64,000 nucleotides of DNA from Armatimonadetes bacterium UBA5352 (lineage in GTDB: Bacteria > Armatimonadota > Zipacnadia > Zipacnadales > UBA5352), in assembly GCA_002411015.1 (NCBI GenBank), contig DHPY01000075.1:28307-92306 (forward strand), written 5' to 3'. The notes under the pieces were generated by a model that was not told the DNA's origin, ran no database searches, and worked only from the letters and a program-made list of their open reading frames with translations. How positions within the stretch are numbered: position 1 is the first letter of the stretch; every line of letters begins with the position of its first letter. The position numbers and the translations under genes are program-made. Below, piece after piece: positions 10,622-50,205 of the stretch.

Positions 10622-13600
10622 GTGGCGATGAAGCGATGGCTGGTGGCGATGGTGGCTGCGATGACTCTGGGGGCGCTTCCGCTGCTGCTGGGGGCAGATG
10701 GCGATGGCCCGGTGGCCGCGTGGACGTTCAACGGCCAGCTCCGCCGCCTGAGCCGCGATGTCGCCGCCGACAAGCATCACGCCATCGCGCATGACGACTA
10801 CGCAAGTGTCGAGGCACCGGGCCTGCTGGCGCTGGAGTTCGATGGCGTGGATGACTTCCTCACGGTCCCGAACGATCCGGCGATCACAATGACCGATCGC
10901 CTGACGGTGGACCTGTGGGTGCGCGTTGAGGAGACGGGCGGGATCCACTGCATCATGGACAAGCGCGGCGAGCGCTACCGCATCCAGGTCTCGCCCGATG
11001 GCGTGCCGATGCTCGGGCTGAAGGCAGGCGGTGACCGCCTCGATCTCACCGGCGGGCGCATCACCTTCGGCCAGTGGCACCGCATCACCGGCACCTTCAA
11101 CCGCCCCGACGCGCGCCTCTACCTCGACGGCCAGCAGGTGGCGCAGGCGACGTGGGATCACGCGGTAGACGCCGGGGGCGACCTGATCATCGGCTCGAAG
11201 TCGGGCGTGGACTACTTCTTCGCAGGCGCGCTTGATGAGTTGCGCATCTACAACTACGCGCGACCGCCGCTGGCCGATGATGCGCCATCAGTCGAACCGA
11301 CGGGAGCGGAGGCCATGGTGAACGCGAAGCTGAGTGTGCAGGAGCTGCCGGACGGCGTGCGCGTGGACACGGGCGCTGCGGTGTATGAGCTGACGGATGT
11401 CGGCGGGCTGCGCTCGCTGATGATCGGTGGCGAGCGGGTGATCGCCGACAACGATCGGCCGCTGCTGACGGCCTCGGCCTTCGCCTCGGAGGAGTATGAC
11501 GGCTGGACCGACCACGCCGCCGGGGGCGTCGTGGAGGCGCAGTGGCGGCCGGACCAGCATCGCTATGAAAGCAATGAGGAGCGGTTCCAGGCCGCTTATA
11601 CCGGGACGCTCGACTTCGGCGGCGGCGACACGATCGAGTGCCAGCTTCTCCTCGAGGCGCGTCGCGGAAGCCCGTTCCTGACAGCCTACACGACACTCCA
11701 GCCAGAGGGCGAGTTCGAGGGCCGCTTCATCCGCGACCTGTCGCTGCGGCTGCCGCTCGCGCTGAACATGCGCAAGCGCGTCGTGCAGGGCTGCGACCGC
11801 GGCGTCCAGTGGAATACGCGGCACTTCTACCAGTTCCACGTGAGCCCGACGAGCCGCCTGATGGCGGAGCCCGACCACAATATCTGGCGGCGCTTCGCGA
11901 TCGACCAGGACTCCCCCACCGACTACCACGCGTGGAAGGCCGAGAGCTACGCCACTCCGCCGCTGACGATGCAGCGTGGCGAGCAGGCGCCGGGGTGGAT
12001 GGCTGCCTACGACGAGCGCGCGGGGCTGATATTTGCCTACCGTGGCCTCGCGGAGGCAGCACCGAAGGCCCTGCGCGTGGAGGCCGAGGGCACGGGCGAG
12101 GCGCGGGTCTGCCTGTGGCATGACAGCCTCCCCGCACTCGCGATCGGATCTCCGCAGGCGAGCACGGTCTTCGGCCGGCCGCACGTGATCGACCTCGCGC
12201 CCTTCGATGACGAGTTCAGCTTCGCCCAGCCGGATACGGCGCTCGCAGCGCTGTGGGAGGTCGAGGGCCTGGCGAGCGACCCACCGAGCCGGAACGAACT
12301 GCCGCTCGGCGGGCTTGAGCCGCTGGCGGAGGAGAGCGCGGAGGGCGAGGCGCCGCTGGTCACCGGCGGCGTGCCGCTCCCGCGCGGGGCGGTGAGCGAT
12401 CCGGCGAATGTGCGCCTGCAGCGCGGTGGCGCGGACGTGCCTCTGCAGACGACGCCGGTCGGATACTGGCCGGATGGCTCGATCATGTGGCTGCTGCTGA
12501 CCTTCCCGCCCGAGGGCGGAGCGGTCACCGCCGCTGCAGGGACCGGCGATGCGCTGGAGTTCGAGGTGACGCGTCGCGATGGCTCGCGTGAGGACTACAC
12601 GCTTCTCTACGGCGGCGACTGCGCGGCGGGCACACCCGCTGAGGCGCTCGCGGTGGGCGAGCTTGATGGCGCTGTACGCATCAACACCGGGCCGCTGCAG
12701 CTTGAGCTTGCGGCGGAGGAGGGCTGGCTGCGGCAGGCGACGCTCAACGGGCAGGAGATGCTCTCCGCGCCCGCGGGCAGCTTCGTGGACTTCCTCCGGA
12801 CGGATGAGCCCTATGCCTCGATGACCACGCAGCCGGACGGGACGCTCGATCCGGGGGCGTTCGTGCCGGAGACGATCGAGCTTGAGGAGGCCGGGCCGCT
12901 GCGGGCGGTGGTGAAGCTCACCGGCATGACCACCGCGCAGGACTCGCCGCGGATTGTGCTGCGCGTGGAGGCATACGCGGGTCGCAGTTGCGCGCGCGTG
13001 GAGCAGAGCGTGGAGTTCCTGACGCCCGACCCGCGCGTGGCCTTTGTGCGGCGGATGGGGCTGGAACTTCCGCTGGCGGATGCGAGCGGCGCGGTCACCG
13101 CCGGCGGGCAGGATGGGCCGGTGGAGCTTGCCGGCGGGCGTCGCGCGGGCCTGCGCCAGCACAGCCACCTCGGCTACACCGCCTGGAGCCAGCGCGAGGG
13201 GGAGGCCTTCGTCCGGCCGGATGAGGCGAAGAGCCGCTCGCGTGGGTGGCTGGACGTTGCCGGCGCGAACGGTGGCGTGGCGATGGTCATGCGCGACATG
13301 TGGCAGAGCTTCCCGAATGAGCTGGTGCTCGACGCTGAGCGTGGCGCGATGACCGCCTACTTCTGGCCGGAGAGCGCGCGGCTGATGGATGTTCGGCGCT
13401 ACTCGAACTACCCGCACCGGTCGCAGGGCGAGTCGGTTCCCGCAAGCTCCGATTGGGTTGAGGAGACCTACTACGGGCGCAACGATCCCTTCACCGGGAT
13501 CACGAAGACCCACGAACTGCTGATCGAGTTCCACGAGCCCGAGGTCTCGCCCGCGACGGTTGATGCGCTCGCGGGCGACTTCCAGCGCAGGCCGCTGATC

Positions 13601-14941
13601 TACTGCGGCTTCGACTGGTATGCGCAGACCGAGACCATCCCGCCGCAGCCCTCGCCGGACGCGCCGGAGTTCGAGCGCATGTCGGCGAACTACGCGCACT
13701 ACGCGGGCTTCTGGATGCGCCATCAGAGGCTCTGGGGCTGGTATGGCCTGTGGGATTACGGCGACGTGCAGCACTACTACAAGGGCGGCTATGGCTCGAT
13801 CGTGCCGCCGGACACGCTCGCCGGGCTGCTCGCCGATCCGCCCGAGGACCTCGAGACGATTGACGTGAGCGGGGTGCGTGTCGGCGACTACGCGCCCGGC
13901 GCGGAGTGGGCCTATGACAACGGCCGCTGGGGCTGGACGAACACCGAGGGCCTGCCGGGGCTGCTGATGCAGATCCACTACCTGCGCACCGGCGACCGCG
14001 ACACGTTCTTCTTCGCGGAGGCGATGGCGCGGCATGTGCGCGATGTGGACATGCGCCACGCGGGCATCTGGCTCGGCATGGGCACGCGCCACGGCGTACA
14101 GCACTGGAGCGATGGCAACCATGAGGAGCGCCAGACGACGCACTCGGAGTTCCGCCACCACTACTTCCTCACCGGCGAGCCGCGCTCGAAAGACTTCGCG
14201 CAGTTGCTTTACGAGCAGATCTACTCGCAGCGTGATGTGAGTGTCCACGCCGCCCACAGCGGTCGCACGCAGGGCCTGCTGACGTGGTGGCTGATGACCG
14301 GGAGCGACGAGGCGGCCTCGATCCTCGAGCGCTACATCCCGTGCTTCGTGATCCCCGAGGGCATCTGCATCTCGCCGGACGTGCGCTTTTCGGAGGTCGA
14401 GTGCGCATCGCAGGAGCGCGACCGCAACGGCGGCAGCATGTTCTTCTGGGTGTTCGGCGCCGGGCACGCGCTGGTGGACTACTACGCGCTGACCGGCAAC
14501 GAGAGCCTGCGCCAGGGGCTGATCGGCGCCGCCGACTACGCCATGCAGCAGGGCCCCGATCCGGGCATGTATCTCAAGGCGGTAGTCTTCGCAGCGCGCC
14601 ATGCCGATGACCCGACGCCATACCGCGAGTACCTCGAGCGCTACTCCGAGACCGATGCGATGAACTGGCAGGTCGTCCCGCACAACCCGGAGGTCTACGG
14701 CGCCTCCCGGGGAATGCTGCGTGGCGGCGTCTCGGGCTCGCTCTTCGGGATGAACGAGCAACTCTACCTGATGAGCGCGCTCAATGGCGACCCGGAGCTG
14801 AGCCCGGAGCAGTGGGCGGAGGTCGCGCGGGTGGACGCCGAGGGCGGTCCGCCCTACACGCCGCCGCTGCTGAGCTGGCAGTCGGAGTATGACCGGCCGG
14901 AGCTGGAGGAGTACCTGCGCATCAAGCATCCGCAACCGTGA
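10622..14941 (+). CDS. Giant secreted protein (1439 aa) with N-terminal signal peptide and LamG/concanavalin-A-like lectin domain; probable polysaccharide-acting enzyme of unassigned family
   Basis: Signal peptide MAMKRWLVAMVAAMTLGALPLLLGA. LamG-like block LEFDGVDDFLTVPND...LWVRVEE...GQWHRITGTF...LYLDGQQV...GALDELRIYNYA. AGGAGG RBS 9 nt upstream. TGA stop overlaps the downstream GTG (GTGA). Confidence 0.6.
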   Translation: MAMKRWLVAMVAAMTLGALPLLLGADGDGPVAAWTFNGQLRRLSRDVAADKHHAIAHDDYASVEAPGLLALEFDGVDDFLTVPNDPAITMTDRLTVDLWVRVEETGGIHCIMDKRGERYRIQVSPDGVPMLGLKAGGDRLDLTGGRITFGQWHRITGTFNRPDARLYLDGQQVAQATWDHAVDAGGDLIIGSKSGVDYFFAGALDELRIYNYARPPLADDAPSVEPTGAEAMVNAKLSVQELPDGVRVDTGAAVYELTDVGGLRSLMIGGERVIADNDRPLLTASAFASEEYDGWTDHAAGGVVEAQWRPDQHRYESNEERFQAAYTGTLDFGGGDTIECQLLLEARRGSPFLTAYTTLQPEGEFEGRFIRDLSLRLPLALNMRKRVVQGCDRGVQWNTRHFYQFHVSPTSRLMAEPDHNIWRRFAIDQDSPTDYHAWKAESYATPPLTMQRGEQAPGWMAAYDERAGLIFAYRGLAEAAPKALRVEAEGTGEARVCLWHDSLPALAIGSPQASTVFGRPHVIDLAPFDDEFSFAQPDTALAALWEVEGLASDPPSRNELPLGGLEPLAEESAEGEAPLVTGGVPLPRGAVSDPANVRLQRGGADVPLQTTPVGYWPDGSIMWLLLTFPPEGGAVTAAAGTGDALEFEVTRRDGSREDYTLLYGGDCAAGTPAEALAVGELDGAVRINTGPLQLELAAEEGWLRQATLNGQEMLSAPAGSFVDFLRTDEPYASMTTQPDGTLDPGAFVPETIELEEAGPLRAVVKLTGMTTAQDSPRIVLRVEAYAGRSCARVEQSVEFLTPDPRVAFVRRMGLELPLADASGAVTAGGQDGPVELAGGRRAGLRQHSHLGYTAWSQREGEAFVRPDEAKSRSRGWLDVAGANGGVAMVMRDMWQSFPNELVLDAERGAMTAYFWPESARLMDVRRYSNYPHRSQGESVPASSDWVEETYYGRNDPFTGITKTHELLIEFHEPEVSPATVDALAGDFQRRPLIYCGFDWYAQTETIPPQPSPDAPEFERMSANYAHYAGFWMRHQRLWGWYGLWDYGDVQHYYKGGYGSIVPPDTLAGLLADPPEDLETIDVSGVRVGDYAPGAEWAYDNGRWGWTNTEGLPGLLMQIHYLRTGDRDTFFFAEAMARHVRDVDMRHAGIWLGMGTRHGVQHWSDGNHEERQTTHSEFRHHYFLTGEPRSKDFAQLLYEQIYSQRDVSVHAAHSGRTQGLLTWWLMTGSDEAASILERYIPCFVIPEGICISPDVRFSEVECASQERDRNGGSMFFWVFGAGHALVDYYALTGNESLRQGLIGAADYAMQQGPDPGMYLKAVVFAARHADDPTPYREYLERYSETDAMNWQVVPHNPEVYGASRGMLRGGVSGSLFGMNEQLYLMSALNGDPELSPEQWAEVARVDAEGGPPYTPPLLSWQSEYDRPELEEYLRIKHPQP

Positions 14942-15945: not shown

Positions 15946-16023
15946 CGCGGTTGGTGCTTATTCCACTGGGGCGGCGCGCGATAGGATCGGGGGACTCAGG
16001 GGTGGAAGTCAGGTTCAGCGCAT

Positions 16024-16380
16024 CTACACGTCGCAGAGCGCGCTGATGTTCGAGTACCACCGGTTTCTTGCCTTGGCGACATCCGCCTCGGTGATCTGTG
16101 TCCCGGCTTCGTAGCGAGCCTGACGAGCCAACTGCTCCAGCGCGAGATACTCCCGGAGGATTAGGTTGAGATGCTGCGCAACCGCTTTTCTGCGCGCAGC
16201 GTGATCCGGGGGGTGAACGCCATGGTTTGCGAGTTTGGCATCCACTAAGTGCAGTGCGGCATAGTAGACTGCAATGGCTTCCCAGTCACAGAAATCCGCA
16301 GCATTCAGTGTATCCCGCACATGCCTGCTGAAAGCCTCGTCATGCTCTGCCTTCTGCGCGTGCTGGTTCCGGGTCGGCAT
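16024..16380 (-). CDS. HEPN-like domain protein (118 aa), third gene of the islet cassette
   Basis: All-helical pattern. Rx5H motif RKAVAQH near the C-terminal half, as in HEPN RNase motifs (Rx4-6H). Start 10 nt after the upstream gene stop. Confidence 0.4.
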   Translation of the reverse strand: MPTRNQHAQKAEHDEAFSRHVRDTLNAADFCDWEAIAVYYAALHLVDAKLANHGVHPPDHAARRKAVAQHLNLILREYLALEQLARQARYEAGTQITEADVAKARNRWYSNISALCDV

Positions 16381-16390
16381 CGGTTGCCCC

Positions 16391-16963
16391 CTATGATGAC
16401 TGCAGCCTGAAACTGGTGCCCCTCTGGCCCACAGTCACCTGTCGCGCCTCAGGGTCACCCTCGTGGGCAATGACAAACTCGGCGCGGAGGTCAGGGAAAA
16501 TGTCATAGAGAGCTGCGGCCCGACCGAACACATCCTCCCAGAGATCGAGGTCCCGCTCCTCGATCACAACAACTATCCGGACTTGACCTCCGTCGTCGAA
16601 CGCGCCCCCCCCAACCACTCGTGGCAGCCCGCCAAGCAGTCGCATCAGGTGCCCGGCGACGAGGCTGGGACTGGGATTACTGATCGTGCGGGGCACGAAG
16701 CTCGGCCATTGACTGCAGAGGTCAAGTTCGCTGTCTGCCGGGAACTCCAACGGAACGCACGGCGCGATGCGTTGGAGGGCAGACCAGCAGTCCGCCAAGT
16801 CCAAAGCCTGCTCCATGTCGTCCTCGTAGAACGCGGTCGCCCGTGGTGCACTGCCAGCCCGCTGTTCCGCGAGTGTGCAGAATACCATCTCCTTAGGCAA
16901 CCGAAGGGCATCTTGGAGGAAATCCAGCACGAGCGTCTCGTCCATGCGGTCAGCTATGTTCAT
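16391..16963 (-). CDS. Hypothetical protein B (190 aa), middle gene of the islet cassette; start ATG overlaps the upstream stop (ATGA)
   Basis: Minus-strand ATGA at plus 16960-16963 couples it to gene A. No recognisable motifs (G-rich stretch VVGGGAFDDGGQVRIVVVIEERDLD). The ORF track offers a longer version to 17029. Confidence 0.4.
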   Translation of the reverse strand: MNIADRMDETLVLDFLQDALRLPKEMVFCTLAEQRAGSAPRATAFYEDDMEQALDLADCWSALQRIAPCVPLEFPADSELDLCSQWPSFVPRTISNPSPSLVAGHLMRLLGGLPRVVGGGAFDDGGQVRIVVVIEERDLDLWEDVFGRAAALYDIFPDLRAEFVIAHEGDPEARQVTVGQRGTSFRLQSS

Positions 16964-17631
16964 CTTCCATGCGCTCCCTCTACCAGAGATCTCGCGACCT
17001 CTTCGGAAAACTCCCAGGTTCCGCGCCAACCAGCCAACGCCTCCACGACATCGGCCCGAGCGTTCTCACTGCCTGGAACGTGATGGAAGTTAAACTGACA
17101 CTGCAGAGCAGTCGTTGGTCCGTCACCATCCGTGTCCTGCTGGGGCTTGATCGTCAGATGGACGCGGAAGACACCAAATTCCCTCTCGACATAGCTGCCG
17201 AAAGCCGAGGAGGCGTCGGGGAAATGGGCGACGAGTGGTGACCCTTCAGGCAGGAACAGCGAGCGCAGGATGTCGGGGCTGAAGGCTTCTCCACCCTCCA
17301 TCCCGCATTCCCACACGCTGTTGATACCGGCACTAGTCGGGTTCACGTCCTGGGGCAGGGCCTTCACGAGAGCGCTCCCGATGGCCATCGCTCGGTCAAC
17401 CGCTGGCTCGCTTGCGTCGCGCGCCGTAACCTGCAGTCGGTCGTCCGTGACGAAGAGACTGATGAGATCTGTGCGAAGTGCAGCGACCACGGGGGCGAAG
17501 ATTTTGTTCTCCGCCTCCGCCAGTTCCGCAGGCGAAAACAGACCGTTTGACGCCAGCCAGAGGGCATCCAGACGAGCGGGGCGGAAGTCATTCGCCCTCA
17601 CCACGACGTTCGCGGACTTTGGCGCCAACAT
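16960..17631 (-). CDS. Hypothetical protein A (223 aa), first gene of the islet cassette
   Basis: Strong RBS GGGAGGA 7 nt upstream of ATG at 17631 (MLAPKSANVVV...). The longer ORF-track version starts at a TTG at 17682. No recognisable domain. Confidence 0.4.
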   Translation of the reverse strand: MLAPKSANVVVRANDFRPARLDALWLASNGLFSPAELAEAENKIFAPVVAALRTDLISLFVTDDRLQVTARDASEPAVDRAMAIGSALVKALPQDVNPTSAGINSVWECGMEGGEAFSPDILRSLFLPEGSPLVAHFPDASSAFGSYVEREFGVFRVHLTIKPQQDTDGDGPTTALQCQFNFHHVPGSENARADVVEALAGWRGTWEFSEEVARSLVEGAHGR

Positions 17632-17885
17632 CTCGGATCCTCCCGTTACACGTTCAGACGGACTGGATGCCGCCCGCACCAAGCGAGCGAGTGGTCTCTA
17701 TATCGGCGTCTTGAGCAGGGACTTCACTTGCGCTATCATTCGCGTTGTTCCTCGTGGAGTCCTCCACCGCAGCGTCATTATACGGAATGCGCCGACAGGA
17801 GCACAAGTCCATGGAGGCATTCGCCTGGGGCAAAGTGATAGTGTCCGCTTGCAGCAAAGTAGAGGTGTCCTCCTCTGAGCCCGCC

Positions 17886-20800
17886 TCACTCCAGCCCGAA
17901 GAGCTCCACCTCCCGCACCCACATCAGGTTCGGGCGGTCCGCTGAGCCGCCTCCGGCGGGCTGGGAGAGGCGGAAGCGATCGGAGGTCACCGGCTGGTCG
18001 AGGCGGAGCTCGCTTCGGGCCTCAGGCTCCTCGGGCCGCAGCGTGGTGATACTCCACCAGCCCTCGTCCACCGCCGCCTCCAGCGTCACCTCGCGTGAGG
18101 TGTGCGGCATCCCCCCGTCGAGGCTCCACCAGATCGCCGCGCTGCCGATCGTCACCGGGCGCTCGAAGCGTAGCTCGATCCAGTGCGGTGCGGCCGCATC
18201 CGCCGAAGCCCACGCCTCATCCGTCCAGTGCGCGTCCGCGGCAGGATACGCGATGCCATCGTTGATCGGCTCGGCGTCGTAGCCGCTGTAGGAGGAGTCG
18301 ACACTGACAGCCGCCTCGCGCGCGAGGTTGCCCTGCCGCCGCGGGTCCTCCATCACCGCCACGTCATCAAACCAGACGGTTCCCGCGCGATCGCGCAGCA
18401 GCAGGTAGACGTTCACGTTGCGGATCGGCTTCTCCGGCTCGATGATCAACTCGCCGATCTGCCACTGGTCGGTGTCGGTGGCGAGCTGATGGATACGCCC
18501 GTAGAGCGGCGTCCCGTCGGTGTAGTAGATGTCCACGTAGAGCGACCAGCCGCGATCCGGCGGCCCGGCGACCTCGCCCCTGCTGGCGGCACGAACGAGG
18601 ATCGGCGTCGGCCGCTCCTGGTTGAGCGTGATCGTCTGCGAGACCTCGCTTCTCTGCGCCCGGCTCTCGTTGCGCATGCGCACGGACGCCTCCCCGCCAT
18701 GCGCCACCTGCGTATCACGCTCGACCTGCCCGGTCGCGCTGGAGCCCCATGCGGTCAGTTCTTCCTCGAAGCCCGGGTTGCGCAGCAGGTTCGCCTCGGC
18801 CGGTATGAACAGCATCTGCGCGCTGTCGGTCGCGGTCGCATCCCCGGCGGTAGCGTTCGCGGTGATGGCCACCGATCCGGCCTCGGGGGTGCCCTCCGGC
18901 GCGACGAGCACGCTCAGGCGCTCCTCAGCGCCGGCGGCGAGGCTGACCTCGCGCGGTTCGGGCGCGGCCCAGCCATCGGGCGCATCGAGGCTGACCGTGG
19001 CCTCCACCGGGCGCGCGCGATGGTTGCGTACGCGCACCTCCACGCGGAACGCGCCGGTTGCGTCGTCGGTGCCTGCGGAGGCAAGCTGCAGCTCAAGCGG
19101 CGCCACGACCTCGACCTCGCGCGTCACGCGGATGGGCACTGCGGCATCGCGACCGCCGAGCAGCACCTCGCCCGTCAGCGCCAGCCTCTCGCCCACCGGC
19201 ACATCGGCAGGGACACGGAGCACGTAGGCGTCATCGACGCGCTGGACGGCCGCCGCCCCGGTTACGGTGACCGTGCTGCGCACCGGAAGCCCGCCCGTGT
19301 CGCCGACAGAGATGGCCACGGTCGCCTCGTCGCCGGCCGCGATGGTCGTGGGCGCGGTGAGCGTTGGCGCACCGATACCGAGGCGCGCCAGCAGTGCCTG
19401 CGCGACGTGCGCCTCCACGGCGTCGAGGTCGCGCAGCATCCGGCGCGCGGGGTTCTCCGCATCGGTCTCGGCGATCCACTCGCGGGTGGCCCCTGCGCGG
19501 GCGCCGATAGCCAGCAGCGCGTCGGGAGACCTGGACTGCTGCGCGGTGTCGATGGCGGCCAGGAGGCTGGCGGTCTCAGCGGTGAGCCGCACACGCTGCT
19601 CATCGCTCAGCGGATCGTACCAGCGCGCGAAGTCCGCGTTCTCCACGTAGTCGCTGCCGAATTCGTCCTCGATGGTGATCGAGGCGATCTTCAGCCGGCC
19701 GCTCACGCCGGCCTCCATCTCGGGCCGGAGGTTGATCGCCCGGAGCGGCTGTTCGGGCTCGAGCGTGAACTCAAGCTCCTGCCAGTCATACGTTCCCTTC
19801 GGCAGATCGAAGTTCGTGGTCTCGTAGTGCGTGAAGCTCTGGCTGACCCACGCGTGCCGGGCGGCGAGGCGCACGAAGCCATCGCCCTCCACGCCCTCGG
19901 CCGAAACGCGCACGCGTATCGTCACCGGCGCGGCCTGCGGCTGGAAGAGCATCGCCCACTGCCACGCGGCCTGCGTGCCGCGATCGATGCCATCGAGCAC
20001 CAGCGCCTGCCCCTCACGCGCGTAGCCCTCGGCGTCGCTGTGCCACGCGTAGGCGATCGCGGGGCGGCCCGTCTGCGCGTCGGCGTCGCGCATCACCTGG
20101 CCGAGCCGGACGATCTCAGCAGCCTGCGCCAGCCGCCACGCTGCCGCCTGCGCCGGTGCTGTCACCTGCAGCATCATGACGCCATCCGCCTCGACCTCAA
20201 TCTGCGCGGTAAGCTGCCCGTTCCGGCGCGCAAGCTCGATCGCGCTTCCTGAGAGCACATCCATGCAGCGAACATCGCGGCTGAGGCCGAGCGCGCGAGC
20301 ATCGATAGTGAGCGTCGTCGCATGGGGCTGCGCGTCCTCATTCAGGAGCGTCAGCCAGAGCACGCCATCCTCCCCCGGCCCGAAGCGCTCGACGAAGACG
20401 CTGTCGCTCGACGAGCGCGCCCACGTCAGAGGCTCCCAGCCCGCGGCGGCGAGGGTCTGCACGAGCGGCTGGTAGGTGAAGATCTCGCGGTCGCGCTCGT
20501 AGTACTCCGGATGGTCCCAGTAGCGCCCGCCGGGCCCGAGGCCGCTCGGCGGCCAGTCGAAGAAGCCCGGGAAGATGCCGTAGGCGAGGCAGCGCTTGTG
20601 GAAGAGCAGGATCTGCTCGTGGCCCATCTGCTGCTCGTAGTTGCCCTTCAGGAGAGTGAGGATCGGCTTGTGATGGGCGGTGCTGCGCAGGTAGTTCATC
20701 TGCTCGCGCGGGATGCGCAGGCTGGTCTCGCCGCCGAAGACGTCCAGCCACGGGGCCACGTAGAAGCTCGAGCCGAATGCGCCGTTCATCATCGTGATCT

Positions 20801-22199
20801 GCCCCTGCGGCCGGAGCTTCTCAGCCGCGGCGCGGGCGAACTCGCAGGAGGAGAAGAAGTTGTTGAGCACCGGCTTCTCCGCGATCGGGTCCCACATCGG
20901 GGGCGCGTCGGCCGTCGCGAAGTGCTCGGTGCGGTAGTTCAGGCCGGTCGAGAGACCGTCGTAGTAGAAGCCGTCGAGGCGGCCGCCGGTCTGCTCGAGG
21001 ATGCTCGCCGTGCGGCGGTCGGCCTCATCGAGCGTCCATGCGCCGTAGGCAAGCTCAGGATCGAGGTTGAACTGCGCGATAATGTGGCCGTAGACGCGCG
21101 CCGGGAGGATGTTGTAGAGGCCCTCCGGGGTGAAGAGGCCGACCGCTTCATAGACCCCCTCCTGCCGGGTGCGCGTGCGGAAGCTCTCGATCATCACCTC
21201 AAGCAGCCGCTCGTAGCGCGGCAGAGGGTCCACCTCAGGGTCGTGGCCGGGGATGTTCGCGAACTGCCCGGCATGCGTGAGGTAGATCGTGTCGAGCACC
21301 TCGATGAGATCGTCGTAGGCGACCTCAGGCGCGCCCTCCTGCAGCCCGAAACGGAACTCGTTCGCGTTGTCTATCTGCGAGAGCTTGCTGAAGGCCATCC
21401 ACTGCCCCGGCTGCGGCACGTAGACCTCGAAAAACTCGGGGTGAAGCTCGTAGTATCGCTGCACGGCGCTGCGGAAGCCCCAGTCGGCGTCGCAGGCATA
21501 CAGCTCGCACTCGAAGGTCCACTCGTTCGGCGGGACGGTGTCGGGCGAGAGCGCGAGGTCGTAGACGATCTGCAGCTGGCGCGTGTCGGGGTCGTATGCG
21601 GTGCGGAAGATGCATGGGCGGTCCATCGGCACCGCGAGACAGAGGCCGACGGGCCCGGTGAGGACCGTGCAGAAGTTGCGGTTCGAGGCGCCCACGCGCA
21701 GGGAGGGCTTGTCCGTCCACTCCGGGAGGTCCGGCCACTCACTCAGCTCGCGCACGTTCTCGTAGACGGTGCCGAGGCCGATCTCGCGGGCGGTCTGCAT
21801 GTCGTCATGCCAGCGCCAGCCGACCGCATCCACAGGGAGGTTCAGGCGCAGCAGCAGGCCCCGCGCGGGCAGATCTGCCTGACCCTGCAGGTGCGTGGTG
21901 ATGCGCAGGCGGCCGCCGACCTGCTCCACCGCGACCGCGGCTGAGGCATCGAGGCCGGGGAAGCTGTACGCGCCATCCGCCGCGAGCACTCCCGCGACGA
22001 ACTCACGGTCGCCGGTGACATCGGCAAGCTCCACCAGCGGACAGGCCTCGGCGGCGCCGATGACGCTCTGCCCGGCGACGGAGAGACCGGTGACGGTGCC
22101 GTCTGCACTGAGAGCCAACTCAATGGCGGACTCCTGCGCCCCGGCAGAAGCAGCGATGAAAAGCGAGAGCATCGCGACTGTGGTGAGCGATCTGAACAT
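17886..22199 (-). CDS. Giant secreted multi-domain carbohydrate-active protein (1437 aa): catalytic-like core plus CBM4/9-type module and C-terminal F5/8-type-C/discoidin-like module
   Basis: Signal peptide MFRSLTTVAMLSLFIAASAGAQ. CBM4_9-like NLLRNPGFEEELTAW...VWFDDVAV. C-terminal galactose-binding-like block. Long uninterrupted ORF. Confidence 0.5.
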   Translation of the reverse strand: MFRSLTTVAMLSLFIAASAGAQESAIELALSADGTVTGLSVAGQSVIGAAEACPLVELADVTGDREFVAGVLAADGAYSFPGLDASAAVAVEQVGGRLRITTHLQGQADLPARGLLLRLNLPVDAVGWRWHDDMQTAREIGLGTVYENVRELSEWPDLPEWTDKPSLRVGASNRNFCTVLTGPVGLCLAVPMDRPCIFRTAYDPDTRQLQIVYDLALSPDTVPPNEWTFECELYACDADWGFRSAVQRYYELHPEFFEVYVPQPGQWMAFSKLSQIDNANEFRFGLQEGAPEVAYDDLIEVLDTIYLTHAGQFANIPGHDPEVDPLPRYERLLEVMIESFRTRTRQEGVYEAVGLFTPEGLYNILPARVYGHIIAQFNLDPELAYGAWTLDEADRRTASILEQTGGRLDGFYYDGLSTGLNYRTEHFATADAPPMWDPIAEKPVLNNFFSSCEFARAAAEKLRPQGQITMMNGAFGSSFYVAPWLDVFGGETSLRIPREQMNYLRSTAHHKPILTLLKGNYEQQMGHEQILLFHKRCLAYGIFPGFFDWPPSGLGPGGRYWDHPEYYERDREIFTYQPLVQTLAAAGWEPLTWARSSSDSVFVERFGPGEDGVLWLTLLNEDAQPHATTLTIDARALGLSRDVRCMDVLSGSAIELARRNGQLTAQIEVEADGVMMLQVTAPAQAAAWRLAQAAEIVRLGQVMRDADAQTGRPAIAYAWHSDAEGYAREGQALVLDGIDRGTQAAWQWAMLFQPQAAPVTIRVRVSAEGVEGDGFVRLAARHAWVSQSFTHYETTNFDLPKGTYDWQELEFTLEPEQPLRAINLRPEMEAGVSGRLKIASITIEDEFGSDYVENADFARWYDPLSDEQRVRLTAETASLLAAIDTAQQSRSPDALLAIGARAGATREWIAETDAENPARRMLRDLDAVEAHVAQALLARLGIGAPTLTAPTTIAAGDEATVAISVGDTGGLPVRSTVTVTGAAAVQRVDDAYVLRVPADVPVGERLALTGEVLLGGRDAAVPIRVTREVEVVAPLELQLASAGTDDATGAFRVEVRVRNHRARPVEATVSLDAPDGWAAPEPREVSLAAGAEERLSVLVAPEGTPEAGSVAITANATAGDATATDSAQMLFIPAEANLLRNPGFEEELTAWGSSATGQVERDTQVAHGGEASVRMRNESRAQRSEVSQTITLNQERPTPILVRAASRGEVAGPPDRGWSLYVDIYYTDGTPLYGRIHQLATDTDQWQIGELIIEPEKPIRNVNVYLLLRDRAGTVWFDDVAVMEDPRRQGNLAREAAVSVDSSYSGYDAEPINDGIAYPAADAHWTDEAWASADAAAPHWIELRFERPVTIGSAAIWWSLDGGMPHTSREVTLEAAVDEGWWSITTLRPEEPEARSELRLDQPVTSDRFRLSQPAGGGSADRPNLMWVREVELFGLE

Positions 22200-45489: not shown

Positions 45490-47052
45490 ATGATGACCGA
45501 ACAAGAGGTTCGAGCGCTGGTTGCTGAGGTAGTGGTGCTGCGCAACTCCGGGCAGTGGCGTGAGGATGACAATGCGCTGATCGAGAGCGGCGCCGCGCTC
45601 AGTTCGCAGGTGGGGCGCGAGGAGGTCCGGGAGCGCTCTGAGGAGCTGCGCGCACTCTCACCGGGGCAGCTCATCCTGCAGACGGACATGGAGACCGGGA
45701 GCTACTTCGCGCCCGACGGCACCGCGATCCCGCCGCTGATGGCGCTCGGGGCCTCGGACAGCGAGGAGCTCGCGGAGGCATGGGGGCACGCTGTCGGCCT
45801 TGAGGGCCGGAGGCTCGGCGTGGATGTAACGTGGAGCCCGGTGCTCGACGTGAACACAAACCCGGGCAACCCGATCATCAACGTGCGCGCGTTCGGCGAG
45901 GATGCCGAGCAGGTCGGGCGCCTCGGTGCGGCGATGACCCGCGGCTTCATCCGCTCAGGCCTGCATCCGTGTGCGAAGCACTGGCCGGGCCACGGCGATG
46001 TCGCAGTGGACAGCCACATCTCCCTCCCGACCGTGACGAAGTCGCGCGAGGAACTGGAGGCGGTGGACTGGCTGCCCTACCGGATGGCGCGCAAGGCTGG
46101 CCTCGAGAGCGCCATGACCGCACACCTGCTGCTGCCGCAGATCGACCCGGAGAACTGCGCGACCGTCAGCCACGCGCTCATCACCGGCATCCTGCGCGAA
46201 CACCTCGGCTACGAAGGCTGCCTCTTCACCGACTCGCTCGGGATGGAGGGCCTGCGGACCACGATCGACTCCGCGGAGGCCGCCTGGATGGCGCTCGCGG
46301 CGGGGCATGACCAGGTGCTCGTGGACTACAAGCGCCCTCCCGGCGAGAGCGTTGAGGCGATGGTGGCGGCGTGCATGGACGGCCGGGTGCCGGAGGCGCG
46401 GCTGCGTGACGCGGTCGGGCGGGTGCGAGCGCTCAAGGCGCGTTTGCGCGAGCTTCCGGCGCTTCCGCCCGAGGAGGAGATCCGCGCGAACATCGCGGAT
46501 GTCGGCCGGCGCGTGGCGGAGGCGGCAGTGACGCTGGTCGGCAAGCTGCCTGAGGGCGGCGTGAAGGCCGGCTCGCGGCCGCTGCTGGTGATCTTCGACG
46601 ACCTCAAGCGCCACGGCGTGGGCGTCGCGGAGGAGGGCGTCTCGGGCGGCCTCGAGGGCACCCATCCGCTCGCGCAGATCGCGCGGGAGATGCTCGACTG
46701 CGACATCATCGTGGCCTCCGAGGACCCGAGCGCGGAGGAGGTCCAGCGCATCGAGAGCCGCGCGCAATACGCGAGCGGTGTCATCGGCGCGACCGTGGCG
46801 CACATCCAGTCATACAAGGGCGAGGGCGTGCGGCTGCCCGCGAAGCAGCGCGAGCTTGCGCAGCGCGGCGCATCGGAAGGGCTGCTGCGCGGCCTGATGC
46901 TCTTCGAATCGCCCTACGCGCTCAAGGACCTGCCGAAGGGCATCCCGGCGGTCGTGGGCTACGGCGCCGATCGCTTCAGCCTGCGGGCGTCGCTGGAGGC
47001 GCTGCTCGGTAAGCGCGCCTGCCCGGGAAGGCTGCCAGTGACGGTGGGGTGA
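45490..47052 (+). CDS. Glycoside hydrolase family 3 N-terminal-domain protein (NagZ/BglX-like)
   Basis: GH3 motif KHWPGHGDVAVDSHISLP. Catalytic region FTDSLGMEG. RBS GGGAGGG before ATG 45490. Confidence 0.7.
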   Translation: MMTEQEVRALVAEVVVLRNSGQWREDDNALIESGAALSSQVGREEVRERSEELRALSPGQLILQTDMETGSYFAPDGTAIPPLMALGASDSEELAEAWGHAVGLEGRRLGVDVTWSPVLDVNTNPGNPIINVRAFGEDAEQVGRLGAAMTRGFIRSGLHPCAKHWPGHGDVAVDSHISLPTVTKSREELEAVDWLPYRMARKAGLESAMTAHLLLPQIDPENCATVSHALITGILREHLGYEGCLFTDSLGMEGLRTTIDSAEAAWMALAAGHDQVLVDYKRPPGESVEAMVAACMDGRVPEARLRDAVGRVRALKARLRELPALPPEEEIRANIADVGRRVAEAAVTLVGKLPEGGVKAGSRPLLVIFDDLKRHGVGVAEEGVSGGLEGTHPLAQIAREMLDCDIIVASEDPSAEEVQRIESRAQYASGVIGATVAHIQSYKGEGVRLPAKQRELAQRGASEGLLRGLMLFESPYALKDLPKGIPAVVGYGADRFSLRASLEALLGKRACPGRLPVTVG

Positions 47053-47068
47053 AAGGGTGAAAGGTGAG
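47041..47068 (-). repeat. Copy 3 (reverse orientation) of REP-like motif: reverse complement reads CCTCACCTTTCACCCTTTCACCCCACC
   Basis: Core TTCACCCTTTCACC. Overlaps the last codons of the GH3 gene and abuts the terminator hairpin. Confidence 0.45.
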
Positions 47069-47098
47069 GGGGGAACGGCGCGTTTGTGCCGTTCCCCC
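47069..47098. terminator. Perfect 11-bp hairpin GGGGGAACGGC-gcgtttgt-GCCGTTCCCCC between convergent GH3 and nuclease genes
   Basis: Stems are exact reverse complements. 16 nt after the GH3 stop and 9 nt after the minus-strand gene stop. Confidence 0.6.
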
Positions 47099-47106
47099 AC
47101 TTCCTC

Positions 47107-47910
47107 TCAGTCGTCGCCAGCCGCCGCGATGGCCTCCTCATCTTCCCTGCATTCAGCCTTCGCCGGTCGCCGCCTCAGCTGACGCGCCCCAGCTTTGCAG
47201 ACCCGACGACGTGCGTTCTCGGCCTCATCCCCCTCAAGGGTCTCACGCCGTAGCACTTCCTGAACGAGCTTCTCTCGTATCTCGTCGGTGTCCACCTTCA
47301 CGTCCGGGTTTACACGGCGCATCTCCCGCCGAATTGCCTTCAGTACTTCATCCGAGACAACAATGGCGGCAATCAGGTGACGGCTCGTCGCCTCATGATG
47401 GCAGACGAAGTCGTCGAGCACGTTCTTCTCGATGCCCTCGCGTGTCAACAGATAAAGAAGCTCCTGACAACCGCTCTGATTGGCAGAGATCTCCAACAGA
47501 TCAATCTCAGCTACCTGTCGAGCCTCAATCGGCTTCCCGAAAATCACCTGATAGACGCGCCACTTGACCCCGTTTGTCAGAATGACCCACTCGACGCCCT
47601 GGTTGGCTGCGTAGTCCAGCGCCTGCCTTATGTGGGTGTCTCTGAAGTCAGTGCCGATGGCTTTGATCTCGATGACGATGCGGATGACATCGGCAATCTT
47701 AATGACCAAATCGCAGTAGGTACCCCGAATTGAGTACTCTGAGGTGATCTCGGTGTACTTGTCGTACCCGAAGAGGTCGGCCAGCACGTCGGTCACTATC
47801 ACCACGGTATCCGACTCGTTGCAGTCCCGGGCGCGAGCGGAGTTCAGGATGGGCTGGTACTGCTTCAACGCCGCTGTCATGCGCTGTGCGACTCTTGCAG
47901 GTATCGCCAT
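47107..47910 (-). CDS. Standalone restriction-endonuclease-fold (PD-(D/E)xK) protein resembling the type I restriction HsdR N-terminal nuclease domain (HSDR_N-like); lower-GC islet gene
   Basis: ITSEYSIRGTYCDLVIKIADVIRIVIEIKAIG carries the D...E-x-K catalytic pattern. Strong RBS GGGAGGG 7 nt upstream of ATG 47910. Visibly lower GC (about 52-55%). Charged C-terminal tail. Confidence 0.5.
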   Translation of the reverse strand: MAIPARVAQRMTAALKQYQPILNSARARDCNESDTVVIVTDVLADLFGYDKYTEITSEYSIRGTYCDLVIKIADVIRIVIEIKAIGTDFRDTHIRQALDYAANQGVEWVILTNGVKWRVYQVIFGKPIEARQVAEIDLLEISANQSGCQELLYLLTREGIEKNVLDDFVCHHEATSRHLIAAIVVSDEVLKAIRREMRRVNPDVKVDTDEIREKLVQEVLRRETLEGDEAENARRRVCKAGARQLRRRPAKAECREDEEAIAAAGDD

Positions 47911-48025
47911 GGAATGACCCTCCCGCAGCATGCGTCTGTACGTTCGTACGACGCAAGTCAGCGGAGGGTTCCCATTCTTGTCGTATATACCTCCATTGTG
48001 TTCCGCCCCCCGCCCAAAAAAGAAC

Positions 48026-48871
48026 CTACCACAACCCCGCGACCGCCGGGACTTCCGCGCGCTCCCTGAGGGTGATCGCGCCATTGCTGCAGGCGCTGCG
48101 GCAGACGCCGCAGCCGTAGCAGGCGCGCTGGTCCACCTCCACCTTCCGGTCCGCGGGAGTGAAGGTCAGCGCGCCAAACTGGCAGAGCCGCATACAGGAG
48201 CGGCAGCCCGTGCAGAGGTCCGGGTCCACCTCCGCCACATACTCCGCCCGCCACATGACCTTCAGGTCATGCACGACCGTAGACTGCATCGCGAGGCAGC
48301 TCTGCCGATCGCAGTTGCAGATGCCGCCGATGTAGGGCGTCCTGAAGGTCCAGACCGTGTGGCAGAGGCCATCCTTCTCATGCTCGGCGAAGGCGGCGGT
48401 CGCCTCCTCCGCGGTCAGTTCGTCATACTCATGCGTGTCCGGCCCGTGGAGGAAGCTCGAGTCTATCTCCTCCATCAGCTTCCCCGCCTCGCCGAGGTGA
48501 GGGGCCATCGAGATCGCGTAGCAGTAGCCGACGTCGCGCCCGAGGGTGCCGCGCCGGCAGATGCAGGCGATCCTGGCGATCGAGTTCAGGAAGCCGAAGA
48601 TCGTCTCGATCTCCTCCAGCGGCACCACCTGCCCGTAGTGCTGCTTCTTCATCCGCCGCGTGATGGCGGCCTTCGCCATCCGCTGGATGAAGCCCGGCGT
48701 GCGGTCAAGCTTCTCCATCATCGGGATGGCTCGCCCGGTCTCCTCCGGCTTTCCGAGAAAGCCCTCGATGAATCTGCGCCGCCGCAGGTCGCTCATGAGG
48801 TTCTCGGAGTAGTTCTTCGCCTGCAGATACCACTTCTTCCCGTCACCGTGCTGCGCGCAGAACTGGCACAT
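48026..48871 (-). CDS. Multi-cluster iron-sulfur protein with C-terminal 2x[4Fe-4S] ferredoxin domain; function unknown
   Basis: CTGCRSCMRLC and CYGCGVCRSAC ferredoxin motifs, plus additional Cys clusters (MCQFCAQHG, CICRRG...C, CNCDRQSC). Confidence 0.5.
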   Translation of the reverse strand: MCQFCAQHGDGKKWYLQAKNYSENLMSDLRRRRFIEGFLGKPEETGRAIPMMEKLDRTPGFIQRMAKAAITRRMKKQHYGQVVPLEEIETIFGFLNSIARIACICRRGTLGRDVGYCYAISMAPHLGEAGKLMEEIDSSFLHGPDTHEYDELTAEEATAAFAEHEKDGLCHTVWTFRTPYIGGICNCDRQSCLAMQSTVVHDLKVMWRAEYVAEVDPDLCTGCRSCMRLCQFGALTFTPADRKVEVDQRACYGCGVCRSACSNGAITLRERAEVPAVAGLW

Positions 48872-48945
48872 CGCACACGCCTCCTTCGCGATACAGACGC
48901 GTACGCTGGCGATCTCGCGGCCCCCTGCTCTTGTCTCTCTGGCGG

Positions 48946-50205
48946 CTATGCCAGGTACATCTCGACCACCGGGATCTCCACATTCGGCTTCACGATCGGC
49001 ACCTGAAGCAACAGGTCATCGCCCTGCTCGGTGAAGCGCACCTCCGATGCGTCGTGCAGAAGCTGCGCGTACTCGATCTTCCCGGCCATCCCCGGCAGGT
49101 GCAGGGTCCGCATCGGCCAGCTCAGTATGTGGCAGTAGAGCCTCCCGGTGTCGAAGTTCTGCGTGTAGCGGCAGTCGGTGGGGGCCTTGAGGTCCGACAT
49201 CGTGCAGCCGTAGATCGAGCGGCCGTTGTACTTCATCCACTCCCCCATGCCCCGCAGGCGCTCCTGCGCGCGATCATCAAAGCAGCCGCGCGCCGTCGGG
49301 CCCACGTTCAGCAGCAGGTTACCCCCCTTCGCCACACCGTCAATCAGCATCTGCAGCAGCATCGACGCGGACTTCCAGGTCATCTCATCGCGATGGTAGC
49401 CCCATGAGCCGCTGAAGGTCTGGCAGGCCTCCCACAGCACCGGCTGGCCATCCACCTCATACCAGCCCTCCGGCTGCACCTGCTCGGGCGTCCAGTAGTC
49501 CTGCGGCGTATCGGTGCGGTTGTTAATGAGGATGCCCGGCTGCAGTTCGCGCACCATCGGCACGAGCGTCTCCGACTGCCAGTCCGCCCGGCCCTTGCCA
49601 TGCGAGAGCAGGCCGCTCGCCTCGCGCTGCGGGTAACTGAAGTCGAAGAAGATCAGGTCGATCTGGCCGTAGCCGGTCAGAAGCTCGCGCACCTGCGCGC
49701 GCAGATACTCGGCGTACTTGCTCACGTCGCGGTCCTGGTGAGCCTTCAGGAACTCCTCGTCATCGGCCTGGGGGTGGACGCCGTCCACAGGGAACTCCGG
49801 GTGGTGCCAGTCGATCAGCGAGTGGTAGAAGCCCACGCGCAGGCCCTCGTTGCGGAAGGCCTCGACCATCGGCGCGATGAGGTCCTGGCCCCAGGGGGTG
49901 TTGGTGACCTTGTAGTCGGTCTGCTGCGTATCCCAGAGGCAGAAGCCGTCGTGGTGCTTGGTGGTGATGACGAAGTACTTCATGCCCGCGTCGGCGGCCA
50001 TCTTCGCCCACTCGGTCGGGTCGTAGAGGTCGGGGTAGAAGTGGTCGAAGTACTTCTGGTACTGCGCGTCGGTCATCTTCTCATACTTCTTCACCCACTC
50101 ATGGCGCGCGGCGAGCGCGTAGATCCCCCAGTGGATGAACATCCCGAAGCGGTCGCGGACGAACCAGTCGCTGTCTCCGATCGACGGTCGTGGCTGGACA
50201 GGCAT
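48946..50205 (-). CDS. Alpha-L-fucosidase, GH29 family (no signal peptide)
   Basis: DWFVRDRFGMFIHWGIYA..., FVITTKHHDGFCLWDT..., GFYHSLIDWHHPEF. Strong RBS GGGAGGG 7 nt upstream of ATG 50205 (ORF-track start 50313 trimmed). Confidence 0.85.
   Translation of the reverse strand: MPVQPRPSIGDSDWFVRDRFGMFIHWGIYALAARHEWVKKYEKMTDAQYQKYFDHFYPDLYDPTEWAKMAADAGMKYFVITTKHHDGFCLWDTQQTDYKVTNTPWGQDLIAPMVEAFRNEGLRVGFYHSLIDWHHPEFPVDGVHPQADDEEFLKAHQDRDVSKYAEYLRAQVRELLTGYGQIDLIFFDFSYPQREASGLLSHGKGRADWQSETLVPMVRELQPGILINNRTDTPQDYWTPEQVQPEGWYEVDGQPVLWEACQTFSGSWGYHRDEMTWKSASMLLQMLIDGVAKGGNLLLNVGPTARGCFDDRAQERLRGMGEWMKYNGRSIYGCTMSDLKAPTDCRYTQNFDTGRLYCHILSWPMRTLHLPGMAGKIEYAQLLHDASEVRFTEQGDDLLLQVPIVKPNVEIPVVEMYLA

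Follow-up and report, generated by a model that had tools for sequence, protein, structure and literature searches.

HEPN ribonucleases are recurrent effectors of toxin-antitoxin, CRISPR-associated, and abortive-infection systems, and inactive HEPN domains also exist, as in sacsin, MtlR, and the substrate-binding domains of nucleotidyltransferases. To our knowledge, AMPylation by an adjacent nucleotidyltransferase (MNT) is the only well-understood control of the small stand-alone HEPN RNases. In MNT-HEPN dyads, the partner gene lies 5′ of the HEPN gene, and in HepT-type toxins the residue AMPylated by the MNT is a tyrosine (PMC3710099). The AF0298-type HEPN proteins show a different pattern of residues: the motif histidine is absent, the arginine is retained, and a second conserved histidine lies N-terminally, an arrangement for which Anantharaman et al. 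(2013, PMC3710099) proposed the role of an alternative RNase site. In the literature, we found no AF0298-type HEPN with demonstrated RNase activity.

The window analyzed here is a 64-kb stretch of DNA from Armatimonadetes bacterium UBA5352. It contains a cassette of three genes, A, B, and C (Table 1), the last of which encodes a protein with a HEPN fold. We consider it somewhat probable that the cassette is an acquired operon with a core made up of a HEPN toxin (C) and a nonenzymatic antitoxin (B), to which A is a lineage-specific addition.

Layout and composition of the cassette

Table 1. Features of the cassette and its borders (positions in the window)
Feature	Position	Strand	Description
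Leader, 254 nt	17632..17885	-	Separates the start of A from the 1437-aa gene that ends upstream; GC 58.7%
Gene A, 223 aa	16960..17631	-	First gene of the cassette, lineage-specific
Gene B, 190 aa	16391..16963	-	Variable N-terminal half; conserved B domain in the last ~90 aa
Gene C, 118 aa	16024..16380	-	HEPN-fold protein of AF0298/UPF0332 type; predicted effector
Spacer, 78 nt	15946..16023	.	Separates the stop codons of C and of a convergent 4Fe-4S (RDH/QueG-superfamily) gene

The sequence and the list of open reading frames (ORFs) bear out the three co-directional minus-strand genes described in the original prediction, together with the strong ribosome-binding site of A (GGGAGGA at 17644–17638, 6 nt 5′ of the ATG) and the ATGA in which the start of B (16963–16961) overlaps the stop of A (16962–16960). 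A and B are translationally coupled. The ATG of C, at 16380, follows 10 nt after the TAG of B (16393–16391). A promoter is presumed to lie in the leader, where neither a σ70-like site on the minus strand nor a terminator was found; a terminator-like hairpin was likewise not found in the spacer 3′ of C. This spacer forms the distal border of the low-GC islet. Neither an operator-like palindrome at the cassette nor a DNA-binding domain was detected, and the lack of these hallmarks of type II autoregulation counts against the proposed toxin-antitoxin role of the B-C pair.

The region 15950–17885 has a GC content of 60.95%, the lowest of 1,242 windows of the same length in the 64-kb stretch (mean 67.2%, SD 1.9%), and is flanked by sequence of 67.5% and 70.7% GC. 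The dip noticed originally is therefore real and significant, but its depth had been overstated: the claimed 55%–58% is reached only at the lowest spots, with 300-nt windows inside the region ranging from 56.7% to 65.7%. Codon usage follows the same trend, GC3 being 0.69–0.72 in A, B, and C versus 0.92, 0.89, and 0.88 in three neighboring genes, and with both measures as outliers the description of the cassette as compositionally foreign holds. All contigs with an identical copy of the neighboring 4Fe-4S protein also hold the cassette, and no related genome lacking it was found, so it is composition alone that points to A-B-C as a horizontally acquired insertion. No direct repeats were found flanking the islet, nor any tRNA or Rfam element at its boundaries. 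For this genome, the cassette would mark a small mobile insertion within a polysaccharide-degradation gene cluster.

Related modules occur in varied genomic contexts, in which transposases are the commonest flanking families. The neighbors of C-family loci are mostly housekeeping genes with some transposases, and no defense islands were seen among them. One homolog belongs to an ICE-like element of 26% GC, alongside genes for FtsK, a serine recombinase, and a relaxase-like product. Searches of plasmids, with P0002 or A as the query, gave no matches, and viral contigs scanned with the C family contained no relatives.

It was also considered whether the three ORFs are spurious, whether the plus strand carries the real genes, or whether the cassette is simply an ordinary part of a polysaccharide-utilization operon. 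Long plus-strand ORFs (16463–17083 and 17270–17878) do overlap the cassette, which also shares its direction with the upstream 1437-aa gene. However, A, B, and C all have homologs at 26%–47% identity in conserved order, whereas the alternative plus-strand ORFs have no such support. The minus-strand frames show the coding-like pattern GC1 > GC2 < GC3, which plus-strand ORF 17270–17878 does not; the fold of C is predicted with a pLDDT of 96; GC3 in the cassette is ∼20 points below that of the neighboring genes; and B-C pairs are housed in unrelated genomic contexts. This explanation is refuted to our satisfaction, and we give it virtually no credence.

Fold and conserved residues of C

The AlphaFold2 model of C (pLDDT 96.4) is an all-α bundle of up-down helices that superposes on solved HEPN domains; an earlier model built from a three-sequence alignment (pLDDT 55.6) was set aside. 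Its structural matches are HEPN throughout, HEPN proteins are also at the top in Foldseek, and the closest solved structures are 2hsb, 1wol, and 1ufb, although sequence identity to 2hsb is only 12%–13%. Against Pfam PF05168 (HEPN), C scores 16.9 bits (E = 0.0074), below the gathering threshold of 22 bits, whereas 35 of 93 relatives match Pfam HEPN at E ≤ 0.1 (best 3.8e-7) and five match YaaC. By these scores, the C family lies at the edge of the PF05168 model. JGI labels one of the relatives as a member of the UPF0332 family. The model, the Foldseek matches, the Pfam matches of the relatives, and this label together establish the HEPN fold of C.

The C family is large: clustering it at 50% identity leaves at least 1,555 clusters. 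A word-indexed homolog search had returned almost no matches, and C seemed an orphan before an exhaustive HMMER search. None of the three cassette proteins matched NCBIfam, PHROGs, or PADLOC (PADLOC-DB v2.0.0, E ≤ 1), and Pfam returned nothing for A and B and only the sub-threshold HEPN hit for C. At the sequence level, the PDB yielded no match for A, for B, or for the B profile, and a profile search with C yielded no meaningful one. No fusions of B and C were found among the longer C relatives. A match of the C-family profile to 6rzy (E = 0.0039 over 41 residues) raised a J-domain as a candidate; this identity was rejected because the structural matches of C are all HEPN, with no J-domain protein among them, and we take the match for a local resemblance that arose by chance or convergence.

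In alignments of 93 and 140 members, Y40, H60, and Y90 are invariant, and conservation reaches at least 90% at H7, W33, H44, R63, Y78, L81, and R89; the family signature is DW..x..FYxALHxxD ... HPxxHxxR ... SRxARY. The string RKAVAQH, originally read as an Rx5H HEPN motif, is present in C (R64..H70) but is absent from the conserved columns of both alignments; the position of H70 is occupied by arginine in the L006 homolog and by lysine in P0002. This string is a chance occurrence, and what is conserved is H60/R63 and R89-Y90. No histidine lies 4–6 residues downstream of R89, and C thus lacks the conserved Rx4-6H motif of the HEPN superfamily. Its residue pattern is instead that of the AF0298/UPF0332-type HEPN-T proteins (arginine kept, motif histidine absent, N-terminal histidine), a correspondence inferred from the fold match and not from residue-level superposition. 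Where the helices begin and end in the model suggests that the pairs H60/R63 and R89/Y90 could be at opposite ends of the bundle, so that a single composite active site in C is only putative.

The partner gene B and the first gene A

A same-strand ORF abuts C on its upstream side in 99 of the 102 loci with enough upstream DNA, at gaps mostly between −17 and +18 nt, and an HMM of the ∼90-aa B domain matches 93 of the 101 genes that abut C homologs. Since one peptide pattern was used to retrieve all of these loci, they represent a part of the C family; within them, the linkage of B and C is near-obligatory. The hosts are patchily distributed and include, among others, Dehalococcoidia, Terriglobia, Clostridia, Bacteroidota, Nitrosopumilus, and DPANN archaea. 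In the B domain itself, no column is invariant or nearly so in an alignment of 28 sequences, and neither a conserved G-S nor a DxD was found. Because the alignment contains no conserved catalytic residues, B is predicted to be a nonenzymatic partner or antitoxin of C.

The first gene behaves differently. Homologs of A were found in only two other contigs (L006, 47% identity; L051, 26%), in each of which the homolog lies directly upstream of a B-C pair and overlaps B, so that the order A-B-C expected elsewhere was indeed recovered. A search of JGI metagenome contigs found no further relatives. At other loci, several unrelated families occupy the first-gene position, and many B-C pairs have no recognizable third gene. 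The idea of a three-gene unit therefore holds for three loci, but what is conserved as a unit comprises two genes, the B-C pair, present in about a hundred loci across many phyla. Comparison of the first-gene families by hhalign gave a single marginal link, between A and the L017/L081 family (P = 6.5e-4 in 15 comparisons, probability 27%). A resemblance of A to TIGR04255 proteins was considered and dropped after A, its two homologs, and the other first-gene families gave no NCBIfam match at E ≤ 1. By its distribution, A is an accessory, lineage-specific add-on to the B-C core.

Proposed function and comparison with known systems

RNase activity and toxicity of C, an antitoxin role of B, and any biological role of the module, such as addiction or defense, are inferred. 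The B-C pair would be the functional core of the operon. C would act as a metal-independent endoribonuclease and toxic effector through a noncanonical site composed of R89, which is the arginine of the motif and has the invariant Y90 directly after it, and the conserved H60, together with R63, H44, and H7. B, which is upstream of C and read first, would neutralize it through direct binding, occupying the position of the MNT in classical MNT-HEPN modules but working without AMPylation. Candidate roles for A are those of a regulator, a sensor, or a stabilizer. If B does neutralize C by binding, this would be a second regulatory solution for this class of toxin and would provide a test case for the long-standing proposal of an alternative His/Arg site in AF0298-type proteins.

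The cassette could instead be an ordinary HEPN/MNT member in disguise, with B a diverged nucleotidyltransferase fold that is either dead or still AMPylates Y90. B is placed exactly where an MNT would be, and the invariant tyrosine beside the motif arginine of C recalls the AMPylated tyrosine of HepT-type toxins. In one Pacearchaeota genome (L049), the partner of a C-family member is a canonical MNT (PF01909, E = 3.8e-11); a MAFFT alignment brings the strand-helix-strand core of this MNT into register with the B domain, and the only segment aligned by hhalign places the MNT DxD strand on the central strand of B. However, this is the only MNT among the 101 upstream partners, hhalign assigns a probability of 0.2% to the comparison of the B domain with a two-sequence MNT alignment, 30 of 31 partner proteins have no Pfam match, whether to NTP_transf_2/Polbeta or to any other family, and the B profile finds no MNT in the PDB even at E = 10. 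The original remark that B lacks a clean MNT motif was correct. As Pfam, the alignment, hhalign, and the PDB all fail to reveal an MNT signature, active AMPylation by B is very unlikely; a dead MNT fold is possible, and the disguised module as a whole we judge unlikely. A nontoxic pair, in which C is a ligand- or RNA-binding regulator or adaptor devoid of nuclease activity and works with B in a cellular process, is slightly more doubtful still. It would suit the missing canonical motif, the nearest solved structures, for which no activity has been demonstrated, the absence of PADLOC matches, and the many modules that sit amid housekeeping genes and not in defense islands. Yet in more than 100 diverse C sequences, three histidines, two arginines, and two tyrosines hardly vary, which is typical of a catalytic site and not of a binding surface. 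Features that mark selfish modules are present as well: a patchy spread over bacteria and archaea, the foreign composition of the cassette, and the transposases and ICE-like element with which related modules are associated.

A tripartite anti-phage abortive-infection system, in which the variable first gene senses infection and frees C from B, seems improbable to us. HEPN effectors are frequent in defense systems (PMC3710099), the first-gene position is held by unrelated families in different lineages, as with sensor or specificity modules, and A and B are translationally coupled in all three loci that contain A. Against this, neither the cassette proteins nor the 93 C relatives match a PADLOC model, the relatives giving only six scattered single matches at E > 1e-3; viral contigs and defense islands are not where the family was found; and a third gene is often missing. 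The defense role originally suggested thus has no direct evidence in its favor. A broader version of the proposal, to which we assign a small chance, would make B-C a class of HEPN conflict modules, both large and uncatalogued, in which a ∼90-aa nonenzymatic domain replaces the nucleotidyltransferase, A is an exchangeable sensor of a three-part abortive-infection system, and the alternative His/Arg site is genuine; if true, the AF0298-type site would be a second solution to HEPN RNase catalysis.

Returning to the toxin and its nonenzymatic antitoxin, C most resembles the AF0298/UPF0332 HEPN-T proteins (PF05168, 2hsb), with which it shares a stand-alone size of ∼120 aa and the motif variation (R89 kept, motif histidine lost, N-terminal histidine at H60/H44). 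C differs from them in its low identity to 2hsb, its sub-threshold Pfam score, the signature of its own family, and its neighbor, a B-domain protein and not an MNT. AbiV, of lactococcal abortive infection, is also a small HEPN family without strictly conserved canonical Arg/His and is regulated by an upstream element, but its antitoxin is reportedly an RNA (abiV2), whereas B is a protein (bioRxiv 10.1101/2024.05.05.592566); neither sequence nor PADLOC linked AbiV to C. In layout, the closest parallel is MNT-HEPN (MntA-HepT, type VII; Shewanella SO_3165/SO_3166 and Aphanizomenon HEPN/MNT), a tightly abutting dyad with the partner 5′ and the small HEPN 3′, as in B-C, where B lies directly 5′ of C in one operon. 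Both kinds of module are mobile and patchily distributed. In contrast to this system, in which HepT is a DUF86 protein with RX4HXY, C neither belongs to DUF86 nor carries that motif, B has no Pol-β signature or other nucleotidyltransferase hallmark, so that neutralization by AMPylation is not expected, and a further gene, A, is added upstream. The prediction of an undescribed type thus holds for the partner, which lacks any match in Pfam, NCBIfam, PADLOC, or the PDB, but not for the overall logic, which is that of the known partner-then-HEPN dyad. The locus draws attention to a large HEPN subfamily that is almost always coupled to a different partner, one that has no conserved residues and is absent from these four resources at the sequence level, and the cassette seems to vary a known toxin-antitoxin theme in a new way.

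Gene layout and recurrence of the cassette

The three head-to-tail minus-strand ORFs at 16024-17631 are just as described in the original prediction, as seen from both the ORF list and the sequence. The minus-strand frames of A, B and C have the coding pattern GC1 > GC2 < GC3.

Genes of the low-GC cassette
Gene	Position	Strand	Product and start
A	16960-17631	minus	223 aa; GGGAGGA at 17644-17638, six bases 5' of ATG
B	16391-16963	minus	190 aa; ATG overlaps TGA of A
C	16024-16380	minus	118 aa; start 10 nt past TAG of B

All three are real genes, as the A-B-C order recurs in other DNA. L006, a 1.8-kb metagenomic contig, carries A, B and C homologues arranged alike (identity 47% for A, 34% for B and 44% for C), and a third trio lies on contig L051, where A is 26% identical to window A. 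The remaining contigs with these exact proteins belong to the same organism (99.9-100% DNA identity), and no cassette-free strain was found. In one low-coverage contig of that organism, L136, the sequence corresponding to B (1728-2363) contains a 63-nt in-frame tandem duplication that places GHLMRLLGGLPRVVGGGAFDD twice and gives a B of 211 aa; the duplication reflects either strain variation or an assembly error.

Gene A gave no family match in the library scans and no PDB sequence match. Its two homologues each lie immediately upstream of a B-C pair, and translational coupling of A and B is kept at all three A-containing loci. Elsewhere among the surveyed loci the slot upstream of B is filled by other families. 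Among them are several of 207-264 aa and one with 20 members of 79-100 aa (e.g., MAKRTINLGGKQFSAEDIPFEAERESWNVYVLHDGTTLKIKTVLAEV...), which immediately precedes the B-like gene at L020, L022, L028, L054, L070, L073-L076, L080 and others; in some lineages the slot holds ordinary housekeeping neighbours. No NCBIfam or Pfam match was obtained for the first-gene families, and their 15 profile comparisons yielded a single marginal link, between A and the family at loci L017 and L081 (P 6.5e-4 before correction). Since A occurs in three loci and the slot is otherwise variable, A is best read as a lineage-specific extra gene beside a conserved core of two, B and C.

Base composition and genomic setting

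The region 15950-17885 (1,936 nt) is 60.95% GC, the lowest among 1,242 windows of the same length over the 64 kb (mean 67.2%, sd 1.9%). The predicted dip is therefore real but shallower than the 55-58% first given, with 300-nt windows inside it ranging from 56.7% to 65.7%. The contrast is plainest in GC3, which is 0.69-0.72 in A, B and C compared with 0.92, 0.89 and 0.88 in three adjoining genes. The composition of the cassette is foreign. The second-lowest GC stretch of the 64 kb, 47000-49000 (∼61.5% over 1.9 kb), may be a further small foreign insertion; there, a stand-alone minus-strand gene (47107-47910) encodes a type I restriction enzyme R N-terminal / PD-(D/E)xK-like domain (PF13588, E 1.9e-7).

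The adjoining 1437-aa gene (17886-22199), initially called a giant CAZyme, has no recorded Pfam match. On the other side, a gene of similar size (1439 aa; 10622-14941) encodes PcRGLX (rhamnogalacturonan-lyase-like) and Laminin_G_3 domains. The gene labelled QueG-like does have partial matches to reductive-dehalogenase and QueG models, but far under their cut-offs.

Searches around the window cassette found neither a flanking repeat nor a tRNA, Rfam element, terminator or operator palindrome. A survey of 131 flanking ORFs from 38 loci revealed no conserved neighbour; DDE transposases and integrase-core domains were the most frequent families (2-4 hits each), and the other ORFs are unrelated housekeeping genes. 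At locus L001 (1842-2942), a 37%-identical C homologue with genes of 104 aa and 132 aa upstream lies within an element of 26% GC, beside genes for a large serine recombinase, RHH proteins, FtsK/SpoIIIE and a relaxase-like (Replic_Relax-like) protein; this element looks like an integrative conjugative element. A second C homologue adjoins an IS1-type transposase. No relatives were found in viral and plasmid collections. The cassette is taken to be horizontally acquired because it is a composition outlier and the module has a patchy, context-free distribution.

Family and fold of gene C

Library scans of window C returned nothing other than a Pfam HEPN match of 16.9 bits, below the cut-off of 22, and a word-indexed homologue search found two relatives. 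When a small C alignment was searched exhaustively with HMMER, 1,555 clusters were retrieved at E <= 1e-3 (152 at E <= 1e-10); among the best 150 of the 1,555, nearly all are stand-alone proteins of 110-135 aa. Pfam HEPN is matched by 35 of 93 relatives (best 3.8e-7) and YaaC (PF14175) by five, and one relative carries the JGI name "UPF0332 family". The AlphaFold2 model built from a 140-sequence alignment (pLDDT 96.4, pTM 0.90) has helices at 4-24, 27-51, 60-70, 72-90 and 98-116. Its structural matches include ST0689, the sacsin HEPN domain, TT1696, SsR10, 4nqf and HepT toxins, and Foldseek agrees (TM 0.81 to 2hsb, an AF0298-type structure).

C is a HEPN protein. Fold and family thus uphold the original assignment, but its basis, the Rx5H arrangement RKAVAQH, is not conserved: H70 gives way to R in L006 and to K in the homologue P0002. 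Alignments of 93 and of 140 members show Y40, H60 and Y90 to be invariant and H7, W33, H44, R63, Y78, L81 and R89 to be conserved at 90% or more. In AF0298-type HEPN-T proteins, the His of Rx4-6H is typically missing and the basic residue retained, and a second strongly conserved N-terminal His is a possible alternative active site (Anantharaman et al., 2013; PMC3710099). The C family is alike: its retained basic residue is R89, and H60/H44 are conserved histidines. Judging by where the helices start and stop, H7/H44/H60/R63 and D32/W33/R89/Y90 may lie at opposite ends of the bundle.

A C-family profile (alignment A7; window C residues ∼51-91) also matched the PDB J-domain 6rzy (E 0.0039, 41 residues) over 'HPxxH ... 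Y..L.D..R..Y', resembling the HPD loop and helix III. A J-domain identity was discounted because the fold matches are HEPN, without any J-domain, and the resemblance looks like local convergence.

The B partner and the proposed operon

Window B has no family match in library scans, and its sole close relative is the L006 protein. Linkage was surveyed at 114 loci with C relatives (34 GTDB species genomes and 80 JGI metagenomes); a C-type ORF was located in 108, with at least 400 nt upstream in 102. At 99 of these 102 loci, a partner ORF on the same strand, 70 aa or longer, ends only a few bases from where C starts, with gaps mostly of -17 to +18 nt; as a single peptide pattern was used to retrieve every locus, this statistic covers the part of the C family bearing that pattern. 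An HMM of the partners' C-terminal ∼90 aa (the B domain) matches 93 of 101 partner ORFs, and most of the eight missed are B-like by eye. The bacterial hosts include Dehalococcoidia, other Chloroflexota, Terriglobia, Clostridia, Nitrospirota, Rokubacteria, Armatimonadota, Actinomycetota, Bacteroidota and Planctomycetales, and there are archaeal hosts among Nitrosopumilaceae and DPANN.

We lean toward A-B-C being a mobile toxin-antitoxin-like operon, on the observed gene structure, composition, fold, conservation and B-C linkage; catalysis, toxicity, neutralisation and biological role are what we infer from them. As effector, C would be a metal-independent HEPN RNase, predicted to use an AF0298-type non-canonical site. 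B, translated first, would neutralise C through binding, and A would have a lineage-specific role alongside the pair.

That B is instead a dead or cryptic MNT is unlikely. One partner missed by the HMM, in a Pacearchaeota genome (L049 4208-5330), is a canonical MNT (FGS...SDIDLLVV; PF01909, 3.8e-11), the only one of 101 partners, and this pair may link the family to classical MNT-HEPN modules. MAFFT places the B domain in register with it, which is suggestive only; hhalign of the B domain against a small MNT alignment gave a probability of 0.2%. No column of the B domain alignment is invariant or nearly so, a Pfam match is absent in 30 of 31 members, and sequence searches of the PDB up to E 10 gave no match. 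Our reading is that B is the conserved, probably non-enzymatic partner of this HEPN subfamily. The B-C pair could also be nontoxic and regulatory, which we consider rather unlikely. A defence system with A as sensor is very improbable: PADLOC reported nothing for window A, B and C or for 93 C relatives, and the 131 flanking ORFs from 38 loci show no defence-island signature.

The module favoured here, a toxin-antitoxin-like operon, is well defined and could decide whether AF0298-type HEPN domains are active RNases. The cassette is not a categorically new system, as the logic of a partner gene followed by a small HEPN gene, and the HEPN subtype, are already known. What is new is the B partner family, uncatalogued in the libraries searched, its near-obligatory pairing with a large HEPN subfamily, and the third gene, A. 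Compared with classical MNT-HEPN modules, B occupies the position of the MNT.
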